DNA of 27,201 bases from a bacterium (lineage in GTDB: Bacteria > BMS3Abin14), in assembly GCA_048061075.1 (NCBI GenBank), contig JBGMRC010000002.1, positions 1-27,201 of the forward strand, read 5' to 3'. Positions 6,346-27,201 of this stretch are shown piece by piece; the first letter of the stretch is position 1, and every line of letters starts with the position of its first letter. The notes beneath the pieces were generated by a model, which made no database searches, was not told the origin of the DNA, and saw nothing but the letters and a program-made list of their open reading frames with translations. The position numbers and the translations under genes were made by a program.

Positions 6346-7377
6346 ATGCCTTCGCATCGATTCTGCAGCATAGACCCCGCCTGGGCGGCCGGGTATCGTG
6401 GGTTTTTCAACTGGAGGACTTTCTCATTCCTGATTATCACGTTTTTTGTGATCGTTACAGCCTTGTTCCCTGGATCATACGCAACAGCCGACGGCGAAAT
6501 TGTCCTGCGTAATGACGCGGTTCCACTTTCCAGTGACCTCATAGTGGGACGTTTCGGAGTCGGCAAACTTTATTTTGATGATCCTTCCGATCTGGACACC
6601 GATGAAGAGGAGAATGTCTATATCCTGGATTCGGGAAATTACCGTATCCAGGTTATGGATGAGGATGGGGATTTCCTCAAGGAATGGGGTGGACGAGGCC
6701 TTGATGATGGCGAGTTCAGAGAGCCTGTGGCCCTGTCTCTGGATTCAGACAACGAATTTGTCTATATTCTGGACAAAGAGAGGTATCTTGTCCAGAAATT
6801 CGATCTGGATGGCAATTTTATCCTCTCTTTCGGGAAGAGAGGTATTAGAAAAGGCAGGTTCGATGATCCGGTTGACCTGACTATAGATTTTCAGGGTTAC
6901 ATCTATGTACTTGACCGTGACAGAGGCGCCATCATCAAGTTTCATTCCAGCGGCGCTTTTGTAGATGAATGGGGTGACATAGGCAGGAAGAGGGATGAGT
7001 TTTCCGATCCGGTTTCCCTTACTTTTTCCGATGTGCGTCTCGGCAGCATATATGTTCTGGACATTGGCAGAAAGGCGATCCTCAAGTTCGACAGGAAGGG
7101 AGACTACGAGGAAACAATACCACTGCTTCCTGAAGAGATTGCCGATGGAAATCCCGTTAAAATACGCTCAGACGACAGTGGAAACCTTTTTATCCTTGAA
7201 TCGAAACAGGGTAAACTGCTGAAATTAAAGGGATTCACATATAGTGTCTTCAGCCTTGTCAGTGAGAAGAACAGAATGGGAAAACCCAGTGGCCTGACCG
7301 TGGATGAAGAGGGTCGCGTCTACATCACTGACCTGGCCAAAAATAAAATAGTCAGGTACAGGATGGAACTGGAATGA
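6346..7377 (+). CDS. NHL-repeat six-bladed beta-propeller protein, exported or membrane-anchored
   Basis: Six NHL-like repeats (FDDPSDLDTDEEENVYILD, FREPVALSLD..VYILD, FDDPVDLTID..IYVLD, FSDPVSLTFS..IYVLD, GNPVKIRSDDSGNLFILE, KPSGLTVDEEGRVYITD). Hydrophobic N-terminal segment. Confidence 0.9.
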   Translation: MPSHRFCSIDPAWAAGYRGFFNWRTFSFLIITFFVIVTALFPGSYATADGEIVLRNDAVPLSSDLIVGRFGVGKLYFDDPSDLDTDEEENVYILDSGNYRIQVMDEDGDFLKEWGGRGLDDGEFREPVALSLDSDNEFVYILDKERYLVQKFDLDGNFILSFGKRGIRKGRFDDPVDLTIDFQGYIYVLDRDRGAIIKFHSSGAFVDEWGDIGRKRDEFSDPVSLTFSDVRLGSIYVLDIGRKAILKFDRKGDYEETIPLLPEEIADGNPVKIRSDDSGNLFILESKQGKLLKLKGFTYSVFSLVSEKNRMGKPSGLTVDEEGRVYITDLAKNKIVRYRMELE

Positions 7378-7814
7378 GAGAGGGTGTTTTGATGTTCCGT
7401 GTAACCAGACTACTTGTGTATTTTCTTCTGACAGTCGTAGTTACTTTTCTCACGGTGTTTGCGACAAGTTCCCTTTCCGCGGATGAAAGTGATCAGGAAA
7501 TGACACCCATCCCCATGATCAGTGGACTAGAGATGCTGAAAAAAGGGGATAAGGGACTTCAGGTGGTGGGTATTGCCATCGACGGTTCACCCATGAAAGG
7601 CGCCATCGAGGCCTTCATGAAGCAGGAGAACTTCACATTTACAGTTCTTATAGATCAACTTAATCCGGACGAGTCCTTCAAGGTTTCCGATCCATATAGA
7701 GTTGCGGGGACGCCCACCCTGTACATCATAGACAGTGAGTGGATCGTAAAGTTCGCCAACGTGGGCAGGACAACCAGGGAGAAGCTGGTAGAAGCTCTCA
7801 ACAGTATTCTCTAA
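7374..7814 (+). CDS. TlpA/redoxin-like thioredoxin-fold protein lacking the N-terminal strands and the CxxC active site (possibly an internally deleted gene)
   Basis: The C-terminal half is TlpA-like (DKGLQVVGIAID..., YRVAGTPTLYIID with cis-Pro, G.TTREKLVEAL). It has an N-terminal signal/TM segment and no cysteine in the whole ORF. The start may be ATG 7392. Confidence 0.75.
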   Translation: MREGVLMFRVTRLLVYFLLTVVVTFLTVFATSSLSADESDQEMTPIPMISGLEMLKKGDKGLQVVGIAIDGSPMKGAIEAFMKQENFTFTVLIDQLNPDESFKVSDPYRVAGTPTLYIIDSEWIVKFANVGRTTREKLVEALNSIL

Positions 7815-7838
7815 GAAAAAGCGGCTTCTGGTCCGATA

Positions 7839-9176
7839 ATGAGGAAAGCCCGTCAGCCCCATCAGAGCATAGTACAGCTTTTAATTACGGCGTCTTTACT
7901 GCTTATTATTGTCTATACAGCAGTCCCCCGGCAAGCCACCTCTGCAATAATTTCAACAGGTAAAAGAGCAATACCTTTCTCAGGTGTAGGTCTCAATAAT
8001 GAAAAGATCGATATTGAGCCTCTCATCGGCAAGGACGGGAAGGTTGCCAAGGTCATGAAGGGATATGAAGAAGAAGAAGAGCTTAAGTGGCTTCACAAAT
8101 ACATTGAAGCCCTGGTGAGCGAGACACCGATTACGCAACTTGCGGGAATAGGTGAGGAGGACGAATTCGAGATCCTCTTTCCTACTAACTTTACCAAGAC
8201 ATTTCAGGATTCCATATATGTAATTGGCATGACTCCTGAGAGCGGAGTCAAATTGACTTTAAGCCTTAACGGAGGCAGCAGGCAGGAAATAGTCTCTGGA
8301 AGGGAAATCTTCTATTTCAGGACCCCGGTTTCTCTGGGGAGCAACTATATCGAAGTCTCCAGGACCGGCCCGGACGGCAAAAAGACCAGCAGAGCAATCG
8401 TTCTCTTCCGTGAACCCAAGATGGGAAAGGGATTTGAAAGCGAGTTCCCTGTCTTCAAATTCCACATCAGGGAAAATGAGGAGAAATGTAAAAAATGCCA
8501 TGAGGTGGAACCACCCCAGACAACCGACAGAAATTTCATGATGATCACCCAGAGGTGTATGGACTGCCACAAGGAGTTGGCCGACAAGAACTACGTCCAC
8601 GGACCTATCCCTGTGGGCGGGTGTGCCCCCTGTCACGATTTCGGGTCTCTTCCTGCCCGGTATGAGCTTTTTACAACAGGATCCGATCTGTGTTACGGCT
8701 GCCACCAGGAAAAGCAGGAGGAGTTTGCCAAGTCCTTCGTTCACGGTCCTCTGGCGGCGGGCTTATGCTCGATCTGTCACAGCCCCCATGGCTCCAATGA
8801 GAAGTACAACCTCCGCCTTCCTCAGGGACAGATGTGTACAACCTGTCATCAGAAGATAAGGGAAGAGTCAGTACGCTCCAATCCCCACAAGCCCTTTGAT
8901 GAAGGCGCGTGTGCCGGCTGCCATAACCCCCATTCTTCCAATAACCCCGAATTCTTTCTGGAAGGTATGGGAGAGGATCTGTGCTTTCAATGTCATAATG
9001 AAGAAATAATGGAGGGTCATCGACATCCGGTGGGCGTTGTCCCCAATCATACTTTTCCGGGGATGAAATTAACCGAACTGGGTGAATTGATGTGCCTCTC
9101 ATGTCATAATCCTCATGCTGGAGATTCAGAAGCTCTGCTGCCCTCTAAAGGCTGTGCAGCCTGCCACGCTTATTAG
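7839..9176 (+). CDS. Decaheme c-type cytochrome (paired-CXXCH/cytochrome c3-like family) with an N-terminal non-heme Ig-like domain
   Basis: Signal peptide. Ten CxxCH motifs: CKKCH, CMDCH, CAPCH, CYGCH, CSICH, CTTCH, CAGCH, CFQCH, CLSCH, CAACH, with the HGP..G.C..CH.PH pattern of the doubled-CXXCH family. A ~200 aa heme-free N-terminal region has a beta-sandwich pattern. Confidence 0.93.
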   Translation: MRKARQPHQSIVQLLITASLLLIIVYTAVPRQATSAIISTGKRAIPFSGVGLNNEKIDIEPLIGKDGKVAKVMKGYEEEEELKWLHKYIEALVSETPITQLAGIGEEDEFEILFPTNFTKTFQDSIYVIGMTPESGVKLTLSLNGGSRQEIVSGREIFYFRTPVSLGSNYIEVSRTGPDGKKTSRAIVLFREPKMGKGFESEFPVFKFHIRENEEKCKKCHEVEPPQTTDRNFMMITQRCMDCHKELADKNYVHGPIPVGGCAPCHDFGSLPARYELFTTGSDLCYGCHQEKQEEFAKSFVHGPLAAGLCSICHSPHGSNEKYNLRLPQGQMCTTCHQKIREESVRSNPHKPFDEGACAGCHNPHSSNNPEFFLEGMGEDLCFQCHNEEIMEGHRHPVGVVPNHTFPGMKLTELGELMCLSCHNPHAGDSEALLPSKGCAACHAY

Positions 9177-9353
9177 AGGGATCTGATATTCGGAAGAAAA
9201 ATAGGCGGAATAGTGGTATATAAAATCACCGAGGGCAACATCAAACAGTCCACCCTGCATGCCGTTCAGGATCTTGTGACCTCTGTAGAAAAAGTGACTG
9301 AAAGGAGATGGGAGACAGAATCCTCAAGATGATCACCGAATTCCTTCTGAAGG

Positions 9354-11141
9354 TTGAAAGTGAAATCAAGAGCCCGTAAAGGGAGCCCCGGCAGACTCCG
9401 GGATAGTAGAGTTATGAAAACTCACCGCCCGAGACCGACAGGCTACATTACCCTGTTTATCCTGCTGCTTGCCATTCTGCTCCTCGCCATTATTCTGGCT
9501 TCCCTGGGACAGCGCAGCCTGAAAAGGGAAAAATCCCTCCTGCTGGATCTCAAAAGAAGACAGGCAACCCTCATGGTGAGGTCCATCGCCTCTGCTGCCC
9601 GCATCAGCACGATGATGCTGGAATCCGGGGACCGCAACCTTGTTCGTTTTGTAAATGATTCTGCCGAGTCGGAGGAGGTGCTTTTTGTCGCGCTTTACGA
9701 TAACTCCGGCCGATTTCTCACGGGTAGCCATCGTTTCATTCCCGACCTACACGGACTTTCTCTGAGGGAGCTTAACAACAGGCTGGCAGGTGCGGATGAA
9801 TCCTACGCTCTGGAGGAACTGCCCGAACTGGGCAGGTTGTTCCTTTTTGTTAGCCGGTTCAATCCTCTGGACAGTTCGTGGATACACCTCAGGATGCTGG
9901 AGATTCCCTCAATACCGGGAGTGACCGAAGAATCCGAGGAAGCTGAACATGGATACTATGTACTGATAGGAATGGACACTACAGATCTTGATGAAGCTGT
10001 GGGGGAGAGCACAAAACAGCTTCTGCTCAACGGTTTCATGTTCCTGCTCCTCGGTACGACAGGATTTTACTTCCTGATAGTGATGCAGGGCTACTTCTCG
10101 GCACGGAAAGCCCTGGCCGATGTACAGCAATACACCGTGGATGTTATCGATGGGATGGCTGAGGGACTTGTGAGCATAGACGAGGAGGGTATTATCAGGA
10201 CCGTCAATCCGGAAGCTCAGAGAATGCTCAATGTTAAATCAAAAGAAATCACAGGAAAACACTGGAGTGATTTCTTCAACGAAGATCAGTGGGAGAACAT
10301 GAGTACTCTCCTCTCAAGGGGGATGCCCTTTTACGATCAGGAAATGCCGGCGCAGGACAAAGATGGGCCCCATCTGGCCGCGACGATGATACCTGTCAGG
10401 AGTCAGGTGGGGGGCGGAGGATCGGTCCTTTTCCTCAGAGACACCGGTGAGGTCAAACTGCTGCAGGACGAAGTCAGGCGGTCAGAAAGACTGGCAGCCC
10501 TTGGCCGTCTTGTTGCAGGGATGGCACATGAGATCAGGAATCCTCTGAATTCCATACGCGGTTTCTCACAGCATCTGAGTCAACGTTTCAAGCAGGATAG
10601 CCAGGAGGGCCGTTCCATCAAGATCATAATGAAGGAGGTAGACAGACTTAACCGGGTAATTACTGAACTGCTGGATTTTTCCCGCCCCCGCGAACCGGTA
10701 CTTGAAGAACTCGATCTGAATGAAGTTGTGAGGTCAGCCGCCTCCCTGGTTGAAAGGGAGTCTATCAGTCAGGGTGTAAAAATGGTCGAGAAACTCCGGC
10801 CTGAAGGGCTTTTTATAAACGGGGATGGGGACGGTCTGAAGCAGCTTCTGATAAATCTCTTTCTCAACGCGTTCCAGGCACTGCCGGAAGGTGGAGTTCT
10901 CACGATCACCACTTCCCTGGCCAGAGATTGCGCCCAGCTGGAAGTTTCCGATACAGGCACGGGCATCACTGGCGAAGACCTGGACAGTATTTTCGAGCCC
11001 TTTTTTACGAGGAAGGCGGAAGGTACAGGTCTTGGCCTTGCCATAGTTCATAGAATAGTTCAGGATCATGGAGGAGAGATAAGGGTCTTATCTACTCCCG
11101 GCAAAGGAACGACTGTTATGGTAAAATTCCCCAAGCTCTGA
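9354..11141 (+). CDS. zraS: Membrane sensor histidine kinase, ZraS/HydH-like (2 TM, periplasmic sensor, PAS, HisKA, HATPase)
   Basis: TM1 YITLFILLLAILLLAIILA; TM2 LLLNGFMFLLLGTTGFYFLIV; PAS (VIDGMAEGLVSIDEEG); H-box GRLVAGMAHEIRNPLNSI; N, G1, F and G2 boxes. The true start may be ATG 9414. The symbol denotes family resemblance, not proven orthology. Confidence 0.85.
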   Translation: MKVKSRARKGSPGRLRDSRVMKTHRPRPTGYITLFILLLAILLLAIILASLGQRSLKREKSLLLDLKRRQATLMVRSIASAARISTMMLESGDRNLVRFVNDSAESEEVLFVALYDNSGRFLTGSHRFIPDLHGLSLRELNNRLAGADESYALEELPELGRLFLFVSRFNPLDSSWIHLRMLEIPSIPGVTEESEEAEHGYYVLIGMDTTDLDEAVGESTKQLLLNGFMFLLLGTTGFYFLIVMQGYFSARKALADVQQYTVDVIDGMAEGLVSIDEEGIIRTVNPEAQRMLNVKSKEITGKHWSDFFNEDQWENMSTLLSRGMPFYDQEMPAQDKDGPHLAATMIPVRSQVGGGGSVLFLRDTGEVKLLQDEVRRSERLAALGRLVAGMAHEIRNPLNSIRGFSQHLSQRFKQDSQEGRSIKIIMKEVDRLNRVITELLDFSRPREPVLEELDLNEVVRSAASLVERESISQGVKMVEKLRPEGLFINGDGDGLKQLLINLFLNAFQALPEGGVLTITTSLARDCAQLEVSDTGTGITGEDLDSIFEPFFTRKAEGTGLGLAIVHRIVQDHGGEIRVLSTPGKGTTVMVKFPKL

Positions 11142-11175
11142 TCACTTTTGAAAAAATCTCTGGAGGAAACAAGCT

Positions 11176-12570
11176 TTGGCCAAAGACGATCGCAAGGCTG
11201 CTCATAAAATACTCATAGTTGACGATGAGGCTTCCCAGAGGGAACTTCTTGAAATGGTTCTTGTTGAGGAGGGTTATACAGTAGAAACCGCCGGCAGCGG
11301 TGAAGAAGCGGTAGGGAAAGTACAGGAGAACTTTTACAACATAGTTATTCTGGACCTTAAGATGGCCGGGATCGGGGGCCTCGAAGCCTTGAAGCATATC
11401 AAGGAGATCTCCCAGGCCATTCAGGTCCTGATCGTCACTGCGTATGCCAGTGTTGATTCGGCGGTGGATGCCATGCGATCGGGAGCCCTGAACTACCTGA
11501 CTAAACCTGTGGATCTGGATGAGCTGAAGGTCCTGGTGGAAAAGACCATGGAGGTCTCGGACCTTGCCGTCGAGAATGAATCCCTTCGAGCACAATTGAC
11601 CAGCAGCCTGCAGATCAGCGATATTATAGGTAACAGCCCGAAAATAATGGAAATATTCGAGACCATAAAGATAGTTGCGCCCACAGACGCGACAGTGCTC
11701 ATCCTCGGCGAGAGCGGGACAGGCAAGGAACTTGTAGCAGATGCTATTCATCGTAACAGCCCCAGGACATCACATCCCCTGATAAAGGTAAACTGCGCGG
11801 CTCTTCCGGAATCCCTGCTCGAGAGCGAGCTGTTCGGACACGAGAAGGGATCTTTTACCGGGGCTGTTTCCAGGCGTGAGGGCAGGTTCAAACTGGCAGA
11901 TGGCGGTACACTCTTTCTGGATGAGATAGGCGAGATGAGCTTCGTTCTTCAGGCAAAGCTGCTAAGGGTGATCCAGGACAAGACTTTCGAGAGAGTAGGG
12001 GGTACTGAGACTATTGCCGTGAATGTTCGACTTATAGTCGCAACCAACAAAGATCTGGACAATGAGGTTAAGGAGGGTCGGTTCAGAGAAGACCTTTATT
12101 ACAGGCTGAATGTATTTCCGATCACTCTGCCCCCTCTAAGGGAAAGGCGGGAGGACATCCCCATACTGGCCGAATACTTCCTCAATATTATTTCGGGGCG
12201 GAACAGAAAGAGGATTCGTGGTTTTTCTCCGTCTGCGATGGATCTCCTTATAAGAAATCAATGGAAGGGTAACGTCAGGGAGCTTGAAAACGTTGTGGAA
12301 AGGGCTGTGATCATGGCTCGCGGAGATCTGGTTCAGACAGAGGACCTGCCCGCCAACCTCCGCCAGGGTGAATCGGAAGAACCCGTCGGAGTGACCCCTG
12401 GCAGGCCCCTGAGTGAGGTCGAAAAAGAGGCAATAATCAGGACATTGGAGTTAACCGGCGGCAACAGGACAGAGGCTGCGAAACTCCTTGGCATCGGTCG
12501 CAGAACCCTGCAGTATAAGCTCAAAGAGTATAGGCTGTCATCCTCAGGTGAGCAAGAAGTGCGCAAGTAG
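11176..12570 (+). CDS. zraR: Sigma54-dependent response regulator (REC-AAA+-Fis HTH), ZraR/HydG-like
   Basis: TTG start with GGAGGA at 11162-11167. REC (ILIVDDE, LDLKM); Walker A GESGTGKE; [15 protein letters not shown]; GNVRELEN; [39 protein letters not shown] and RNRK.I.GF.P.AMDLLI resemble ZraR. The symbol denotes family resemblance. Confidence 0.9.
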
Positions 12571-12666
12571 TGTCAGTGAATGTTGCATTTTTTGCACAAA
12601 TTCTGTAGTATGGAAAAACTGACAATTTTTTTTACTTGCAAAAGTGTTTTATTTTTCAGTGTCTTA
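12571..12666. promoter_or_regulatory. Candidate enhancer (UAS) and IHF site for the downstream sigma54 promoter
   Basis: TGCA-N5-TGCA dyad at 12584-12596. TGTCAGT (12571-12577) and ACTGACA (12618-12624) form an inverted pair. AT-rich tract with TTTCAGTGTCTTA (12654-12666), two mismatches from the IHF consensus WATCAANNNNTTR. Confidence 0.45.
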
Positions 12667-12692: not shown

Positions 12693-12708
12693 TGGCACAA
12701 CATGTGCA
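12693..12708 (+). promoter_or_regulatory. Sigma54 (-24/-12) promoter
   Basis: TGGCACAACATGTGCA versus consensus TGGCACGNNNNTTGCW. GG-N10-GC spacing is exact. Predicted +1 near 12719. Confidence 0.8.
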
Positions 12709-12718
12709 TTACAATTTT

Positions 12719-12850
12719 GAAAGCAAATCGGTAACCTGCTAAGCCCCCAACTTCATCCGGTCTTTGGCCGGATGAAGATGCACCCCCAATGCTCGGTCCT
12801 ATACCGAGCCGACCCCTCAACGGCCCCCAACGTTGAGGGGTCATTTTTTT
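12719..12850 (+). ncRNA. Putative sigma54-dependent small RNA (~130 nt, three stem-loops, three RCCCCCAA motifs)
   Basis: Begins at the predicted sigma54 +1. Stems at 12751-12777 (12 bp), 12791-12809 (7 bp) and 12811-12842 (12 bp perfect), followed by a T7 tract. RCCCCCAA at 12743, 12782 and 12823, all in unpaired regions. No credible ORF. Confidence 0.72.
12811..12850 (+). terminator. Intrinsic (rho-independent) terminator
   Basis: gacccctcaacg-gcccccaa-cgttgaggggtc followed by aTTTTTTT. Confidence 0.88.
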
Positions 12851-12867
12851 GTCTTAATTTTGTTAAG

Positions 12868-13023
12868 GTCGTAAAAAGTCCATCCGTGGCTTTTTGCTCC
12901 TCGGGAAGTGAAAAGCGACGTTTTCCCTTCCCTCACGAATCCATAACTCACGTTGCAGGTTATGGATTCGGGCGCCCACGCTCGGGCGCGATGATAATAT
13001 GCAAGTCATTGATTTTGGCGCCC
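12868..13023. repeat. Multi-hairpin intergenic element (MITE/REP-like), probably incomplete
   Basis: Starts GTCGTAAAAAGTCC. Four consecutive hairpins: 12873-12895, 12903-12932, 12936-12970 (12-bp perfect) and 12972-12989. 13001-13023 is an 18/23-identical second copy of 12955-12977. Confidence 0.55.
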
Positions 13024-13034
13024 CTCAAGGTGAT

Positions 13035-13108
13035 AAAGCAGGGAAGAGGGAGGAGGGTAAAGAGAGGAGTTTTGAGATTCTTTTTTCCTCCTCCCTCTTC
13101 CCTGCTTT
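13035..13108. repeat. Perfect 22-bp purine/pyrimidine inverted repeat with a 30-nt spacer
   Basis: aaagcagggaagagggaggagg (13035-13056) is the exact reverse complement of cctcctccctcttccctgcttt (13087-13108). Confidence 0.92.
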
Positions 13109-13160
13109 CCACGATTCATGTTATATGTTTCGGTATTTTCGCTATGGTGAAATCCGATTA

Positions 13161-13176
13161 TGGCCTGGATCGTGCT
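13161..13176 (+). promoter_or_regulatory. Weak candidate sigma54 promoter upstream of the cobM-like gene
   Basis: TGGCCTGGATCGTGCT: GG-N10-GC with 3 mismatches to consensus, about 100 nt upstream of ATG 13274. Confidence 0.35.
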
Positions 13177-13273
13177 ACAAAAGGTGAATGATGAACGGTT
13201 TGGTAATTAAACTCGTTCTTCCTACTCCCTGTGAAAAATACAGGAATCTAAAGGAATAGAGAGAATCTAAAAC

Positions 13274-14982: not shown

Positions 14983-15513
14983 GTGACAAAAACCGCCGAA
15001 AGAATAGCCGAAATCGCGATCGTCGCTCTTCTCGTCTTTCTCGGGATTCAGTTTCTCCCGAGTCGGACTCCCACGACCGAAATATCCATCAATATACTGG
15101 CAGGAGCCAGGGTAAAATCCATGGATCCGGTTGAATCCGCATACTTCAAAAAGGAGCTTGCGCAGGCAAGGCTGGTCGTTGACGGTGACGGCGATGCGGC
15201 CGATATTTTAGAAGAGCTTAAGAAGAAGTATCCCGGCCGCCACGAGGTCTGGGCCCTTTCGGCCCGTTTTCTGGAGGTCGAGGGAAAAAACCTGGAGGCG
15301 CTTTCACACTATGCTCGCGCGGTGCGTCTTAACCCCAACTATATAGAAGAGGATTCCCCCATTTTTCTCGGCCACAGGATAAAGAGTCTGACTAATAACG
15401 TTTTGGAGGACCTGATATTAAAAAAGAGGAGATCCGGGCTTTCACCCGGGGAATCGGAGTACCTTAAGATAGCCTACTTTCTCCGTCGGCGTATGGCAGG
15501 GGGTTGTGAATGA
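14983..15513 (+). CDS. Membrane-anchored TPR-like hypothetical protein with a C-terminal ...AGGCE
   Basis: N-terminal TM (IAIVALLVFLGIQFL). TPR-like helix pair (VWALSARFLEVEGKNLEALSHYARAVRLNP). ATGA overlap with yedE. Confidence 0.75.
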   Translation: MTKTAERIAEIAIVALLVFLGIQFLPSRTPTTEISINILAGARVKSMDPVESAYFKKELAQARLVVDGDGDAADILEELKKKYPGRHEVWALSARFLEVEGKNLEALSHYARAVRLNPNYIEEDSPIFLGHRIKSLTNNVLEDLILKKRRSGLSPGESEYLKIAYFLRRRMAGGCE

Positions 15514-26069: not shown

Positions 26070-27201
26070 GTGCTGGAGCCAAGGGTCGAATTCTGGTTGT
26101 GGACGATGAGAGAAGCATGCGGGAGATGCTGGATATTTTCCTCGGGCGGGAGGGGTACCAGGTAACTGAATGCGCCTCCGGGACGGAGGCCCTGCGCCTC
26201 CTGGACCAGAAGGAACCCTTCGACCTGGTAATAACCGATATTAATATGCCGGGTTTGTCCGGCTTCGACCTCTTAAGAGAGATAAGGGATAAATTTACAG
26301 ACCTTCCTGTTCTCATGATCACAGCGTACGGATCTCCCGATTCGGCAGTGGAAGCCATGAAGCTGGGTGCCACGGATTACATCACCAAGCCGTTCCGGAT
26401 CGAGGAGATAAAGGCCAGGATCAGCGCCTCTGTGGAGAGAAGACGTCTGGCAGAGGAAAACATCGAGCTGCAGCGGCTTTTGGACAGCAGGTACGGGTTC
26501 GACAACATTATAGGAAAGAGCGCCAAGATAAAGGGCGTATTCGACATGATCGGACGGCTTTCCGACATGGACAGCACTGTGGTTATTTCAGGGGAGAGCG
26601 GTACCGGCAAGGAGCTGATAGCCAGGGCCCTGCACCATCACAGCCCTTCCGGAAAGGGGCCTTTTGTCACGCTGAACTGCGGCGCTCTGGTTGAAACTCT
26701 CCTGGAAAGCGAGCTATTCGGCCACAAAAAAGGATCTTTTACGGGAGCCGAGTCGGACCGGGTGGGTCTTTTTGCCACTGCCAGCGGCGGGACCCTCTTT
26801 CTTGACGAGATCACTGAGACATCCATGGCGCTGCAGGTGAAGCTGCTCAGGGTTGTTCAGGAAGGTGAAGTAGTCCCCGTGGGTGACACACAGGCCCTGA
26901 GTGTGGATGTGCGGATCGTGGCCGCGACAAACAGGGATCTTGCCAGGGAAGTCAAGGAGGGGCGTTTCAGGGAGGATCTCTACTATCGCCTGAATGTAAT
27001 ACATATCCACGTTCCTCCCCTCAGGGAAAGGAAAGAGGACATCCCTCTTCTGGTGGAACACTTCCTGAAAACTCTGTCAGAAAGGCAGAATCAGGAAGTA
27101 AAGGAGGTGGCCCATGAGGCGATGGCAAGACTGATGGAATACAGCTTTCCAGGGAATGTCAGGGAACTGGAAAATATAATTGAAAGGGGCGTTGCCCTTT
27201 C
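26066..27201 (+). CDS. pilR: Sigma54-dependent response regulator PilR (3'-truncated by the window end; absent from the supplied ORF track)
   Basis: ATG 26066 overlaps the pilS stop (ATGA). Reads MSAGAKGRILVVDDERSMREML...TDINMP, then [23 protein letters not shown], and ...[16 protein letters not shown] in the same frame at the window edge. Confidence 0.92.
   Translation, partial: MSAGAKGRILVVDDERSMREMLDIFLGREGYQVTECASGTEALRLLDQKEPFDLVITDINMPGLSGFDLLREIRDKFTDLPVLMITAYGSPDSAVEAMKLGATDYITKPFRIEEIKARISASVERRRLAEENIELQRLLDSRYGFDNIIGKSAKIKGVFDMIGRLSDMDSTVVISGESGTGKELIARALHHHSPSGKGPFVTLNCGALVETLLESELFGHKKGSFTGAESDRVGLFATASGGTLFLDEITETSMALQVKLLRVVQEGEVVPVGDTQALSVDVRIVAATNRDLAREVKEGRFREDLYYRLNVIHIHVPPLRERKEDIPLLVEHFLKTLSERQNQEVKEVAHEAMARLMEYSFPGNVRELENIIERGVAL

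Follow-up and report, generated by a model that had tools for sequence, protein, structure and literature searches.

A probable structured small RNA with three exposed C-rich motifs, linked to a sigma54-dependent two-component system in the bacterial phylum BMS3Abin14

The locus and the predicted RNA

The stretch of DNA analysed here (the window) spans positions 1 to 27,201 of contig JBGMRC010000002.1 (GenBank assembly GCA_048061075.1), part of a metagenome-assembled genome (G000; 78% complete) from the bacterial phylum BMS3Abin14. It carries, on the forward strand, genes for a sensor histidine kinase and a sigma54-dependent response regulator, followed at positions 12719-12850 by an element that is very probably a real, uncatalogued gene for a structured small regulatory RNA (sRNA; Table 1). 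An earlier note, made from the letters alone, had placed here a sigma54-dependent sRNA with three exposed RCCCCCAA motifs; all of its coordinates proved exact, and the features that it described exceed chance. The kinase and the regulator resemble AtoSC and ZraSR, scoring below the equivalog cut-offs. The near-consensus sigma54 promoter that follows them is unique, the pattern TGGCAC-N5-KTGCW matching once in the whole window with 0.03 matches expected. Counted from C12707 at position -12, transcription would start at about position 12719.

Table 1. Features of the locus and of related or candidate target loci. Positions refer to the window unless a genome or locus is named; nt, nucleotides; aa, amino acids.
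Feature	Position	Strand	Remarks
Multihaem (decahaem) cytochrome c gene	7839-9176		Upstream of the kinase gene
PAS-domain sensor histidine kinase, AtoS/ZraS-like	9354-11141	+	Pfam HisKA, HATPase_c, PAS; below NCBIfam equivalog cut-offs
Sigma54-dependent response regulator, presumed activator of the sRNA	11176-12570	+	Pfam receiver, AAA+ sigma54-interaction, Fis-type helix-turn-helix
Palindrome TGCA-T6-TGCA, probable enhancer (predicted activator site)	12584-12596	+	109 nt 5' of the -24 box
Sigma54 -24/-12 element TGGCAC-AACAT-GTGCA	12693-12708	+	Single match in the window
Predicted sRNA transcript, ~132 nt	12719-12850	+	Conserved core 12738-12850; covariance model R1, 127 bits
C-rich motif 1, GCCCCCAA	12743-12750	+	Single-stranded 5' leader
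Stem-loop 1	12751-12777	+	Compensatory changes at 9/11 pairs
C-rich motif 2, ACCCCCAA	12782-12789	+	Linker between stems 1 and 2
Stem-loop 2, GCUCGGU ... ACCGAGC	12791-12809	+	Sequence nearly invariant
Stem-loop 3, Rho-independent terminator (12-bp stem, A, T7)	12811-12850	+	Terminator scan; compensatory changes at 10/12 pairs
Stem 3 proper	12811-12842	+	Followed by A and by T7 at 12844-12850
C-rich motif 3, GCCCCCAA	12823-12830	+	8-nt loop of stem 3; unpaired probability 1.00
19-nt complement of motif 2 and its flanks, AGCAUUGGGGGUGCAUUUU	G000:C35:5658-5676		Ribosome-binding site, directly 5' of the ATG of a DUF2779/RNase H-like gene
FadL/TodX-like outer-membrane protein, 5' untranslated region	G000:C12:14742-14780	-	Carries CAUUGGGGGG
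Small open reading frame (P0001 family; 93 aa) in G010	L022:1616-1894	-	

The motif RCCCCCAA occurs at 12743, 12782 and 12823 and nowhere else on either strand of the 27.2-kb window. Its core CCCCCAA has 119 sites in the 1.69-Mb assembly, with two or more of them within 80 nt at the sRNA element only, and the element itself is single-copy in the genome, which disposes of the possibility that it belongs to a high-copy repeat. The three stems proposed in the earlier note constitute the minimum-free-energy fold (-58.2 kcal/mol, z = -7.2), with none of 200 shuffled sequences as stable, and the third was called as an intrinsic terminator. The motifs had also been described as single-stranded, and this agrees with the mean unpaired probabilities of their C5 cores across 26 distinct homologues (0.85, 0.97 and 1.00 for motifs 1, 2 and 3, respectively). 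Of the three, motif 3 alone occupies a hairpin loop, the other two being in single-stranded linkers.

As the note had supposed, the element belongs to no named family. A scan with Rfam models, that of Pxr included, returned no family at the gathering threshold anywhere in the window, and between positions 12500 and 13300 none of Qrr, GlmY/GlmZ, NrsZ, CrcZ, Pxr and 6C was matched even at E <= 10. The only family of the sRNA type to surface in a permissive scan was sX13 (RF02232), whose weak score of 13.1 bits (E = 8.9), against a gathering score of 50, places the element outside that family.

Conservation and linkage to the response regulator

At the levels of family, order and phylum alike, GTDB places the window in one set of 16 species genomes. 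Of the 15 family members besides G000, 11 gave a BLASTN match to the element, compared with none of 45 genomes from other families. A covariance model built on 12 homologues matches 13 of the 16 phylum genomes, including all ten that are at least 90% complete; 12 of these 13 carry a full-length copy, and the remaining one, G008, gives a 31-bit match to a divergent 83-nt version. Run against 135 genomes of other families, the same model found nothing beyond one weak 28-bit match. When 185,579 species genomes were scanned for an exact pattern and the matches rescored with the model, members of the window's phylum alone were recovered, under deposit names such as "Proteobacteria bacterium SZUA-178", "SZUA-204" and "bacterium bin47", and the same pattern retrieved 20 further homologues from metagenome contigs. 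The homologue search thus bears out the expectation that both the sigma54 box and the CCCCCAA motifs are conserved across the phylum: the CCCCCAA of motifs 2 and 3 is invariant in all 12 genome homologues, and motif 1 is kept in ten, being degenerate in G007 and G013.

The predicted structure is supported by covariation. In a MAFFT alignment of the 12 genome sequences, 17 of the 30 base pairs show compensatory changes. For 26 distinct sequences, pairing is kept in 96.9% of cells, with compensatory changes at 21 of the 30 pairs, a result that none of 500 shuffles equalled, and controls with slid partners gave three to five compensatory pairs in the same set. Stems 1 and 3 drift freely and covary strongly, and stem 2 is almost fixed in sequence; in the larger set this invariance is partly biased, the pattern used for collection having contained stem 2, and it holds also in the 12 sequences found by BLAST. 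Three features assign the RNA to the forward strand: the promoter, the T-tract and the abundance of G-U pairs.

Synteny of the locus is fixed across at least eight genera. We therefore consider it very improbable that the element is a chance arrangement, a fragment of a repeat or mobile element, or part of a coding gene. An ATG-initiated open reading frame (ORF) of 139 aa (12772-13191) does overlap it, as the last of these explanations would have it; yet this ORF has no Pfam match, and alignment indels of one and two nucleotides would break any reading frame, so that the element is not coding, in keeping with the earlier statement that the segment holds no credible ORF. Single-copy occurrence, conserved synteny, strong covariation and non-triplet indels all contradict such explanations.

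Two diverged relatives of the element were found outside this syntenic position. The relative G003 has a second copy at G003:C1:2561239-2561353 (91.8 bits), behind an unrelated ORF and with no visible sigma54 box, in which motif 2 is degenerate and stem 2 different. The 83-nt variant of G008 (G008:C178:11609-11691) lies in another 3' untranslated region (UTR) and has three C-rich motifs, with neither a T-tract nor a visible sigma54 box. Weak covariance-model matches behind cold-shock protein genes were rejected as ordinary terminators.

The -24/-12 box is present in 11 of the 12 genome loci and in nearly all metagenome loci, fitting 10 or 11 of the 12 consensus positions in nine genome loci and seven or eight in G007 and G013; rpoN is encoded in all five near-complete relatives. 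The link to an adjacent sigma54 activator, suggested at the outset for the window, extends to the phylum. Leaving the small ORF described below aside, an orthologue of the regulator stands directly upstream of the sRNA in all 12 full-length genome loci and likewise, by tblastn, in 15 metagenome loci (70-98% identity). On a tree these orthologues group together (support 100/99), a long branch setting them apart from seven paralogues of the same genome. Four genomes, namely G001, G004 and G012 (73-81% complete) and G008 (97%), have regulator matches at the level of paralogues only (at most 50% identity). The regulator and the full-length sRNA accordingly occur together in 12 of 12 genomes and are both missing in the other four.

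A predicted activator site adds to this picture. In G000, G002, G003 and G010, which represent four genera, a TGCA-N5/6-TGCA dyad precedes the box by 109-112 nt, and related TGCRCA half-sites are found upstream in other loci; among the 49 sigma54-like boxes of G000, that of the sRNA alone has such an upstream dyad. Judged from sequence, the locus thus appears to combine a conserved -24/-12 promoter at the right distance, an adjacent enhancer-binding protein and a predicted upstream activator site, and a hard-wired connection of the sRNA to the neighbouring NtrC-type two-component system is supported.

Other NtrC-family activators and sigma54-like boxes occur in these genomes. A second activator gene begins in the window at 26078-27199, its product being 50% identical to the regulator at 11176-12570, and G000 encodes at least nine NtrC-family paralogues. 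A further sigma54-like box, TGGCATACCGGTTGCA, lies in the segment G003:C1:574364-574620. Some 130 nt before it are TGCA/TGCGCA dyads; after it come roughly 100 nt with tracts rich in C and U (CUCCCCUCCUU) and a hairpin resembling a terminator. The segment may encode another activator-dependent sRNA; BLASTN found no homologue of it in G000.

Two architectures of the sRNA locus

The window has no ORF between the promoter and the sRNA. A different arrangement is found in five genomes (G003, G006, G010, G011 and G015) and 11 metagenome loci, where the sigma54 box lies about 50 nt 5' of an ORF of 92-96 aa whose stop codon abuts motif 1, so that the sRNA is there the 3' UTR of a small-protein mRNA. 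The stand-alone sRNA gene that the earlier note had envisaged therefore holds for the window and fails for many relatives, in which the same RNA belongs to the mRNA of a small sigma54-driven ORF, as its 3' UTR.

The small proteins share 54-84% identity, an invariant G-H-x-G-A-G, a very basic C-terminus rich in K and R and a terminal F-H. They have just 17 relatives among 5.8 billion proteins and match no Pfam or NCBIfam family, with no recognisable RNA-binding domain or fold. The AlphaFold model has a predicted local distance difference test score (pLDDT) of 72, and its top match in the PDB, RNA polymerase epsilon-like, is not significant (E = 0.07).

The ORF is missing from 11 of the 16 genomes, including that of the window. 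Mapped on the regulator tree, its presence and absence require three or four changes, and at least three lineages without the ORF still have the sRNA and its promoter, the sigma54 box lying 13-86 nt upstream of the sRNA core. In the window's own clade the promoter stands about 30 nt before the conserved core and 35 nt before motif 1. The metagenome locus L103 retains no more than the first 41 codons of the ORF, together with both the sRNA and the box. Of the two, it is the sRNA that constantly accompanies the two-component system and the small ORF that varies, and the persistence of sRNA and promoter beyond the loss of the ORF argues that the sRNA has a function of its own.

The same observations bear on the proposal that the element has no function in trans and is the cis-acting 3' end (a terminator with stabilising hairpins) of an upstream transcript. 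In many relatives that transcript would be the mRNA of the small ORF; in the window it would come from the kinase/regulator operon. Such a role would suit the ORF-bearing loci, in which the element abuts the stop codon, as well as the related copies behind unrelated ORFs in G003 and G008, and in the window the regulator gene is followed by no strong terminator ahead of the element. Termination, however, does not need three invariant single-stranded heptamers, and promoter and sRNA have been retained where the ORF is gone, that is, in the lineage of the window and in two or more others, as well as in L103, where the ORF is truncated. We accordingly regard a purely cis-acting 3' end as improbable.

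Among characterised systems, the ORF-bearing relatives are reminiscent of CpxQ, an sRNA derived from the 3' UTR of the CpxAR-controlled cpxP mRNA (Chao and Vogel 2016, via PMC7602753): in both cases the sRNA, conserved here, forms the 3' UTR of a gene for a small protein under the control of a two-component system. This location applies to G003, G006, G010, G011, G015 and many metagenome loci, and not to the window. By contrast, CpxQ needs Hfq and processing by RNase E, its promoter depends on sigma70 and CpxR, and the RNA described here is also found free-standing, the promoter having shifted to a place beside it, as is the case in the window. That one sRNA should be, in related genera, either the 3' UTR of a small-protein gene or a free-standing gene behind the same promoter is to our mind the most instructive feature of the system, and this interchange bears on the origin of sRNA genes.

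Possible mode of action and genomic context

The observed conservation, structure and motif exposure of the element, together with the conservation of its promoter, its linkage to the regulator and the absence of Hfq from near-complete relatives, are consistent with a trans-acting sRNA of about 130 nt that is driven by the two-component system and sigma54 and that pairs through its C-rich motifs, without Hfq, with G-rich sites in mRNAs. We assign this reading a probability of about 0.6. Under it, the PAS kinase (9354-11141) would phosphorylate the NtrC-type regulator (11176-12570), which would bind the TGCA-N6-TGCA dyad about 110 nt upstream and activate the RpoN-RNA polymerase at the -24/-12 box (12693-12708), and transcription would stop at the stem 3 terminator. 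The three CCCCCAA motifs would then act as redundant seeds, pairing with UUGGGGG or with stretches of four or five G at or next to the ribosome-binding sites (RBSs) of several mRNAs and repressing their translation or stability, and the sRNA would serve as the post-transcriptional output arm of the two-component system.

Hfq was not found in five relatives that are 98-100% complete, and CsrA is present in one of these five near-complete genomes. Chaperone-free pairing is favoured by the lack of Hfq, by the exposed C-rich motifs and by the precedents of sX13, 6C and the Rsa RNAs. The sX13 RNA has three C-rich loops and targets G-rich motifs at translation starts independently of Hfq (PMC3771888); C-rich loops of the actinobacterial 6C sRNA are reported to bind targets without a chaperone (PMC6486639); and the Rsa RNAs of Staphylococcus use unpaired C-rich motifs against G-rich mRNA sites, likewise independently of a chaperone (PMC2790875). 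The closest likeness is to sX13 of the Xanthomonadaceae (RF02232; about 115 nt), which also has three stem-loops and repeated exposed C-rich motifs. Its motifs are, however, 4C or 5C and all lie in apical loops, whereas here they read CCCCCAA, with two in linkers and one in the terminator loop; and it is encoded at the polA locus with no known sigma54 dependence, in contrast to the two-component system and -24/-12 promoter found here. The 6C and Rsa RNAs come from unrelated lineages, have other structures, gave no Rfam match here and are not sigma54-driven.

A second set of precedents concerns the proposed regulation. Qrr, GlmY/GlmZ, NrsZ and CrcZ are sigma54-dependent, and qrr1 adjoins luxO as glmY adjoins glrKR. 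These RNAs resemble the proposed arrangement in being the direct output of an NtrC-family regulator acting on a -24/-12 promoter from an upstream enhancer, and in the case of qrr1-luxO and glmY-glrKR also in the position of the sRNA gene beside the regulator gene. The listed pairs of sRNA and two-component system are Qrr1-5 with LuxO, GlmY/GlmZ with GlrKR, NrsZ with NtrBC and CrcZ with CbrAB (Table 1 of PMC7602753). The differences lie in their mode of action, Qrr and NrsZ working with Hfq and GlmY and CrcZ as protein or RNA decoys, compared with genomes that lack Hfq here. Their seeds also differ from a threefold C5AA, and no sequence or structure match to their Rfam families was obtained. 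The RNA described here is a new family, a member of none of the sX13, 6C, Qrr, GlmY, NrsZ, CrcZ and CpxQ families.

Candidate targets were sought in G000 and, for comparison, in the complete relative G003, of which 86% was covered. The strongest site in G000 is a 16-nt perfect match to motif 2, or 19 nt with one G-U pair, in the RBS of the DUF2779/RNase H-like gene (Table 1). Of the conserved genes, 4.4% in G000 and 8.4% in G003 have a run of five G in the region of the RBS; 15 orthologue pairs share such a run, where 3.8 would be expected. An exact TGGGGG near the start is common to G000 and G003 for two genes only, encoding a FadL-like outer-membrane protein and a membrane protein. The 5' UTR of the FadL/TodX-like gene carries a tract of four to seven G, 0-4 nt upstream of a GGAAAGGAG Shine-Dalgarno sequence, in eight of nine orthologues from across the phylum; further candidate 5' UTRs are those of AtpD and an Fe-S subunit with AAAGGGGGUGAU. 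We take the shared G5 sites and the FadL-like G-tract as suggestive leads rather than findings. The one local target ventured in the earlier note, GGGGG at 15499 in the Shine-Dalgarno position of yedE, did not hold up, since it offers about 7 bp of pairing and the G5 is missing from the RBS of the G003 orthologue. Apparent clusters of UUGGGG proved to be simple repeats (degenerate tandem 8-nt units), and an antisense 17-mer in G012 is a chance match inside a coding region.

Several results weigh against a trans-acting, sigma54-driven RNA that pairs with mRNAs. No target with full UUGGGGG complementarity is conserved. The DUF2779 site is confined to the window's species, being missing from the orthologues in G001, G002 (congeneric with G000), G003, G009, G011 and G014, and was rejected as a conserved target. 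In a duplex-energy screen of 1341 orthologue pairs, six fell jointly in the top 5% with 3.4 expected, which is no enrichment, and many of the top pairs were spurious antisense ORFs. The conservation of stem 2 in sequence, and not just in pairing, suggests that a protein or some other partner may recognise it. On the side of expression, G014 and its metagenome relatives have no recognisable sigma54 box; there is no convincing terminator between the regulator gene and the sRNA (fold z = -1.4), so that read-through may contribute; and among the sequencing runs listed for the sequence none is an RNA run.

Part of this evidence would be expected if the sRNA were instead a protein sponge or decoy, with the C-rich motifs, and possibly stem 2, titrating a protein that binds C-rich single-stranded RNA, much as CsrB and RsmY titrate CsrA and CrcZ titrates Hfq/Crc. 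Rho (for which the C-rich tracts would be rut-like), a KH-domain protein or the co-transcribed basic protein of 93 aa could be bound in this way. The sequence invariance of stem 2 and the lack of conserved mRNA targets favour such a role, as do the three identical and evenly spaced motifs and the co-transcription of the sRNA, in many relatives, with a conserved and very basic orphan protein; and sigma54-driven sponge RNAs are known, as with CbrB and CrcZ (PMC7602753). Three sites are few for a sponge, though, and we know of no bacterial regulator reported to recognise CCCCCAA. The small protein, moreover, has no evident RNA-binding fold and is absent from most of the genomes, that of the window among them, with the sRNA unchanged there, and exposed C-rich motifs have several precedents in base pairing. 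On balance we regard a sponge as unlikely. Its more specific form, a C-rich counterpart of CsrB and CrcZ in which a sigma54-induced decoy captures Rho or the 93-aa protein through its CCCCCAA sites and stem 2, we consider decidedly unlikely; if true, it would amount to an undescribed class of sponge in a phylum without Hfq and mostly without CsrA and, where the 93-aa protein is the partner, to a small ribonucleoprotein.

On the preferred reading of a trans-acting, pairing sRNA, the RNA would be the first defined riboregulator of an uncultured phylum of hydrothermal vents and sediments. It would extend known themes, namely sigma54-dependent sRNAs and C-rich seeds in bacteria without Hfq, and opens no new one; its covariance model could be submitted to Rfam. 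The proposed circuit would be complete, from sensor kinase through sigma54 activator, enhancer and promoter to sRNA, and it lies at the end of a conserved gene block with a multihaem cytochrome.

This block comprises an NHL-repeat protein, the decahaem cytochrome, the kinase and the regulator, and its span in the window (6346-12570) is syntenic with G003:C1:1193229-1199696, the two genomes representing two genera. The two-component system and the sRNA may belong functionally to this cytochrome cluster, which resembles those for extracellular electron transfer. Downstream of the sRNA lie genes for a tetrapyrrole methylase, an ABC ATPase, a TPR protein, a YedE-like protein and a cysteine desulfurase, and here synteny between G000 and G003 is absent. 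The sequencing runs that hold the sequence are DNA runs from hydrothermal vents, marine sediment and cold seeps.

Two further sequence features were noticed. Degenerate 8-nt units, GATTAGAG-like or CTAAGAAC/ATCCAAGA-like, are repeated in tandem throughout several intergenic regions in these genomes, for example at G003:C1:676240-676420 and 3' of the sRNA terminator in G003, G010 and G011. In the window, a long and near-perfect hairpin with perfect arms of 22 nt (13034-13109), formed by purine-rich GGGAAGAGGGAGGAGG and its pyrimidine-rich complement, sits between the sRNA terminator and the methylase gene; the many sub-threshold Rfam microRNA matches there are artefacts of its length and perfection. 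It is not high-copy in G000, with one other 21-nt match, on contig C44, and a purine-rich run similar to its arm ends contig C81.

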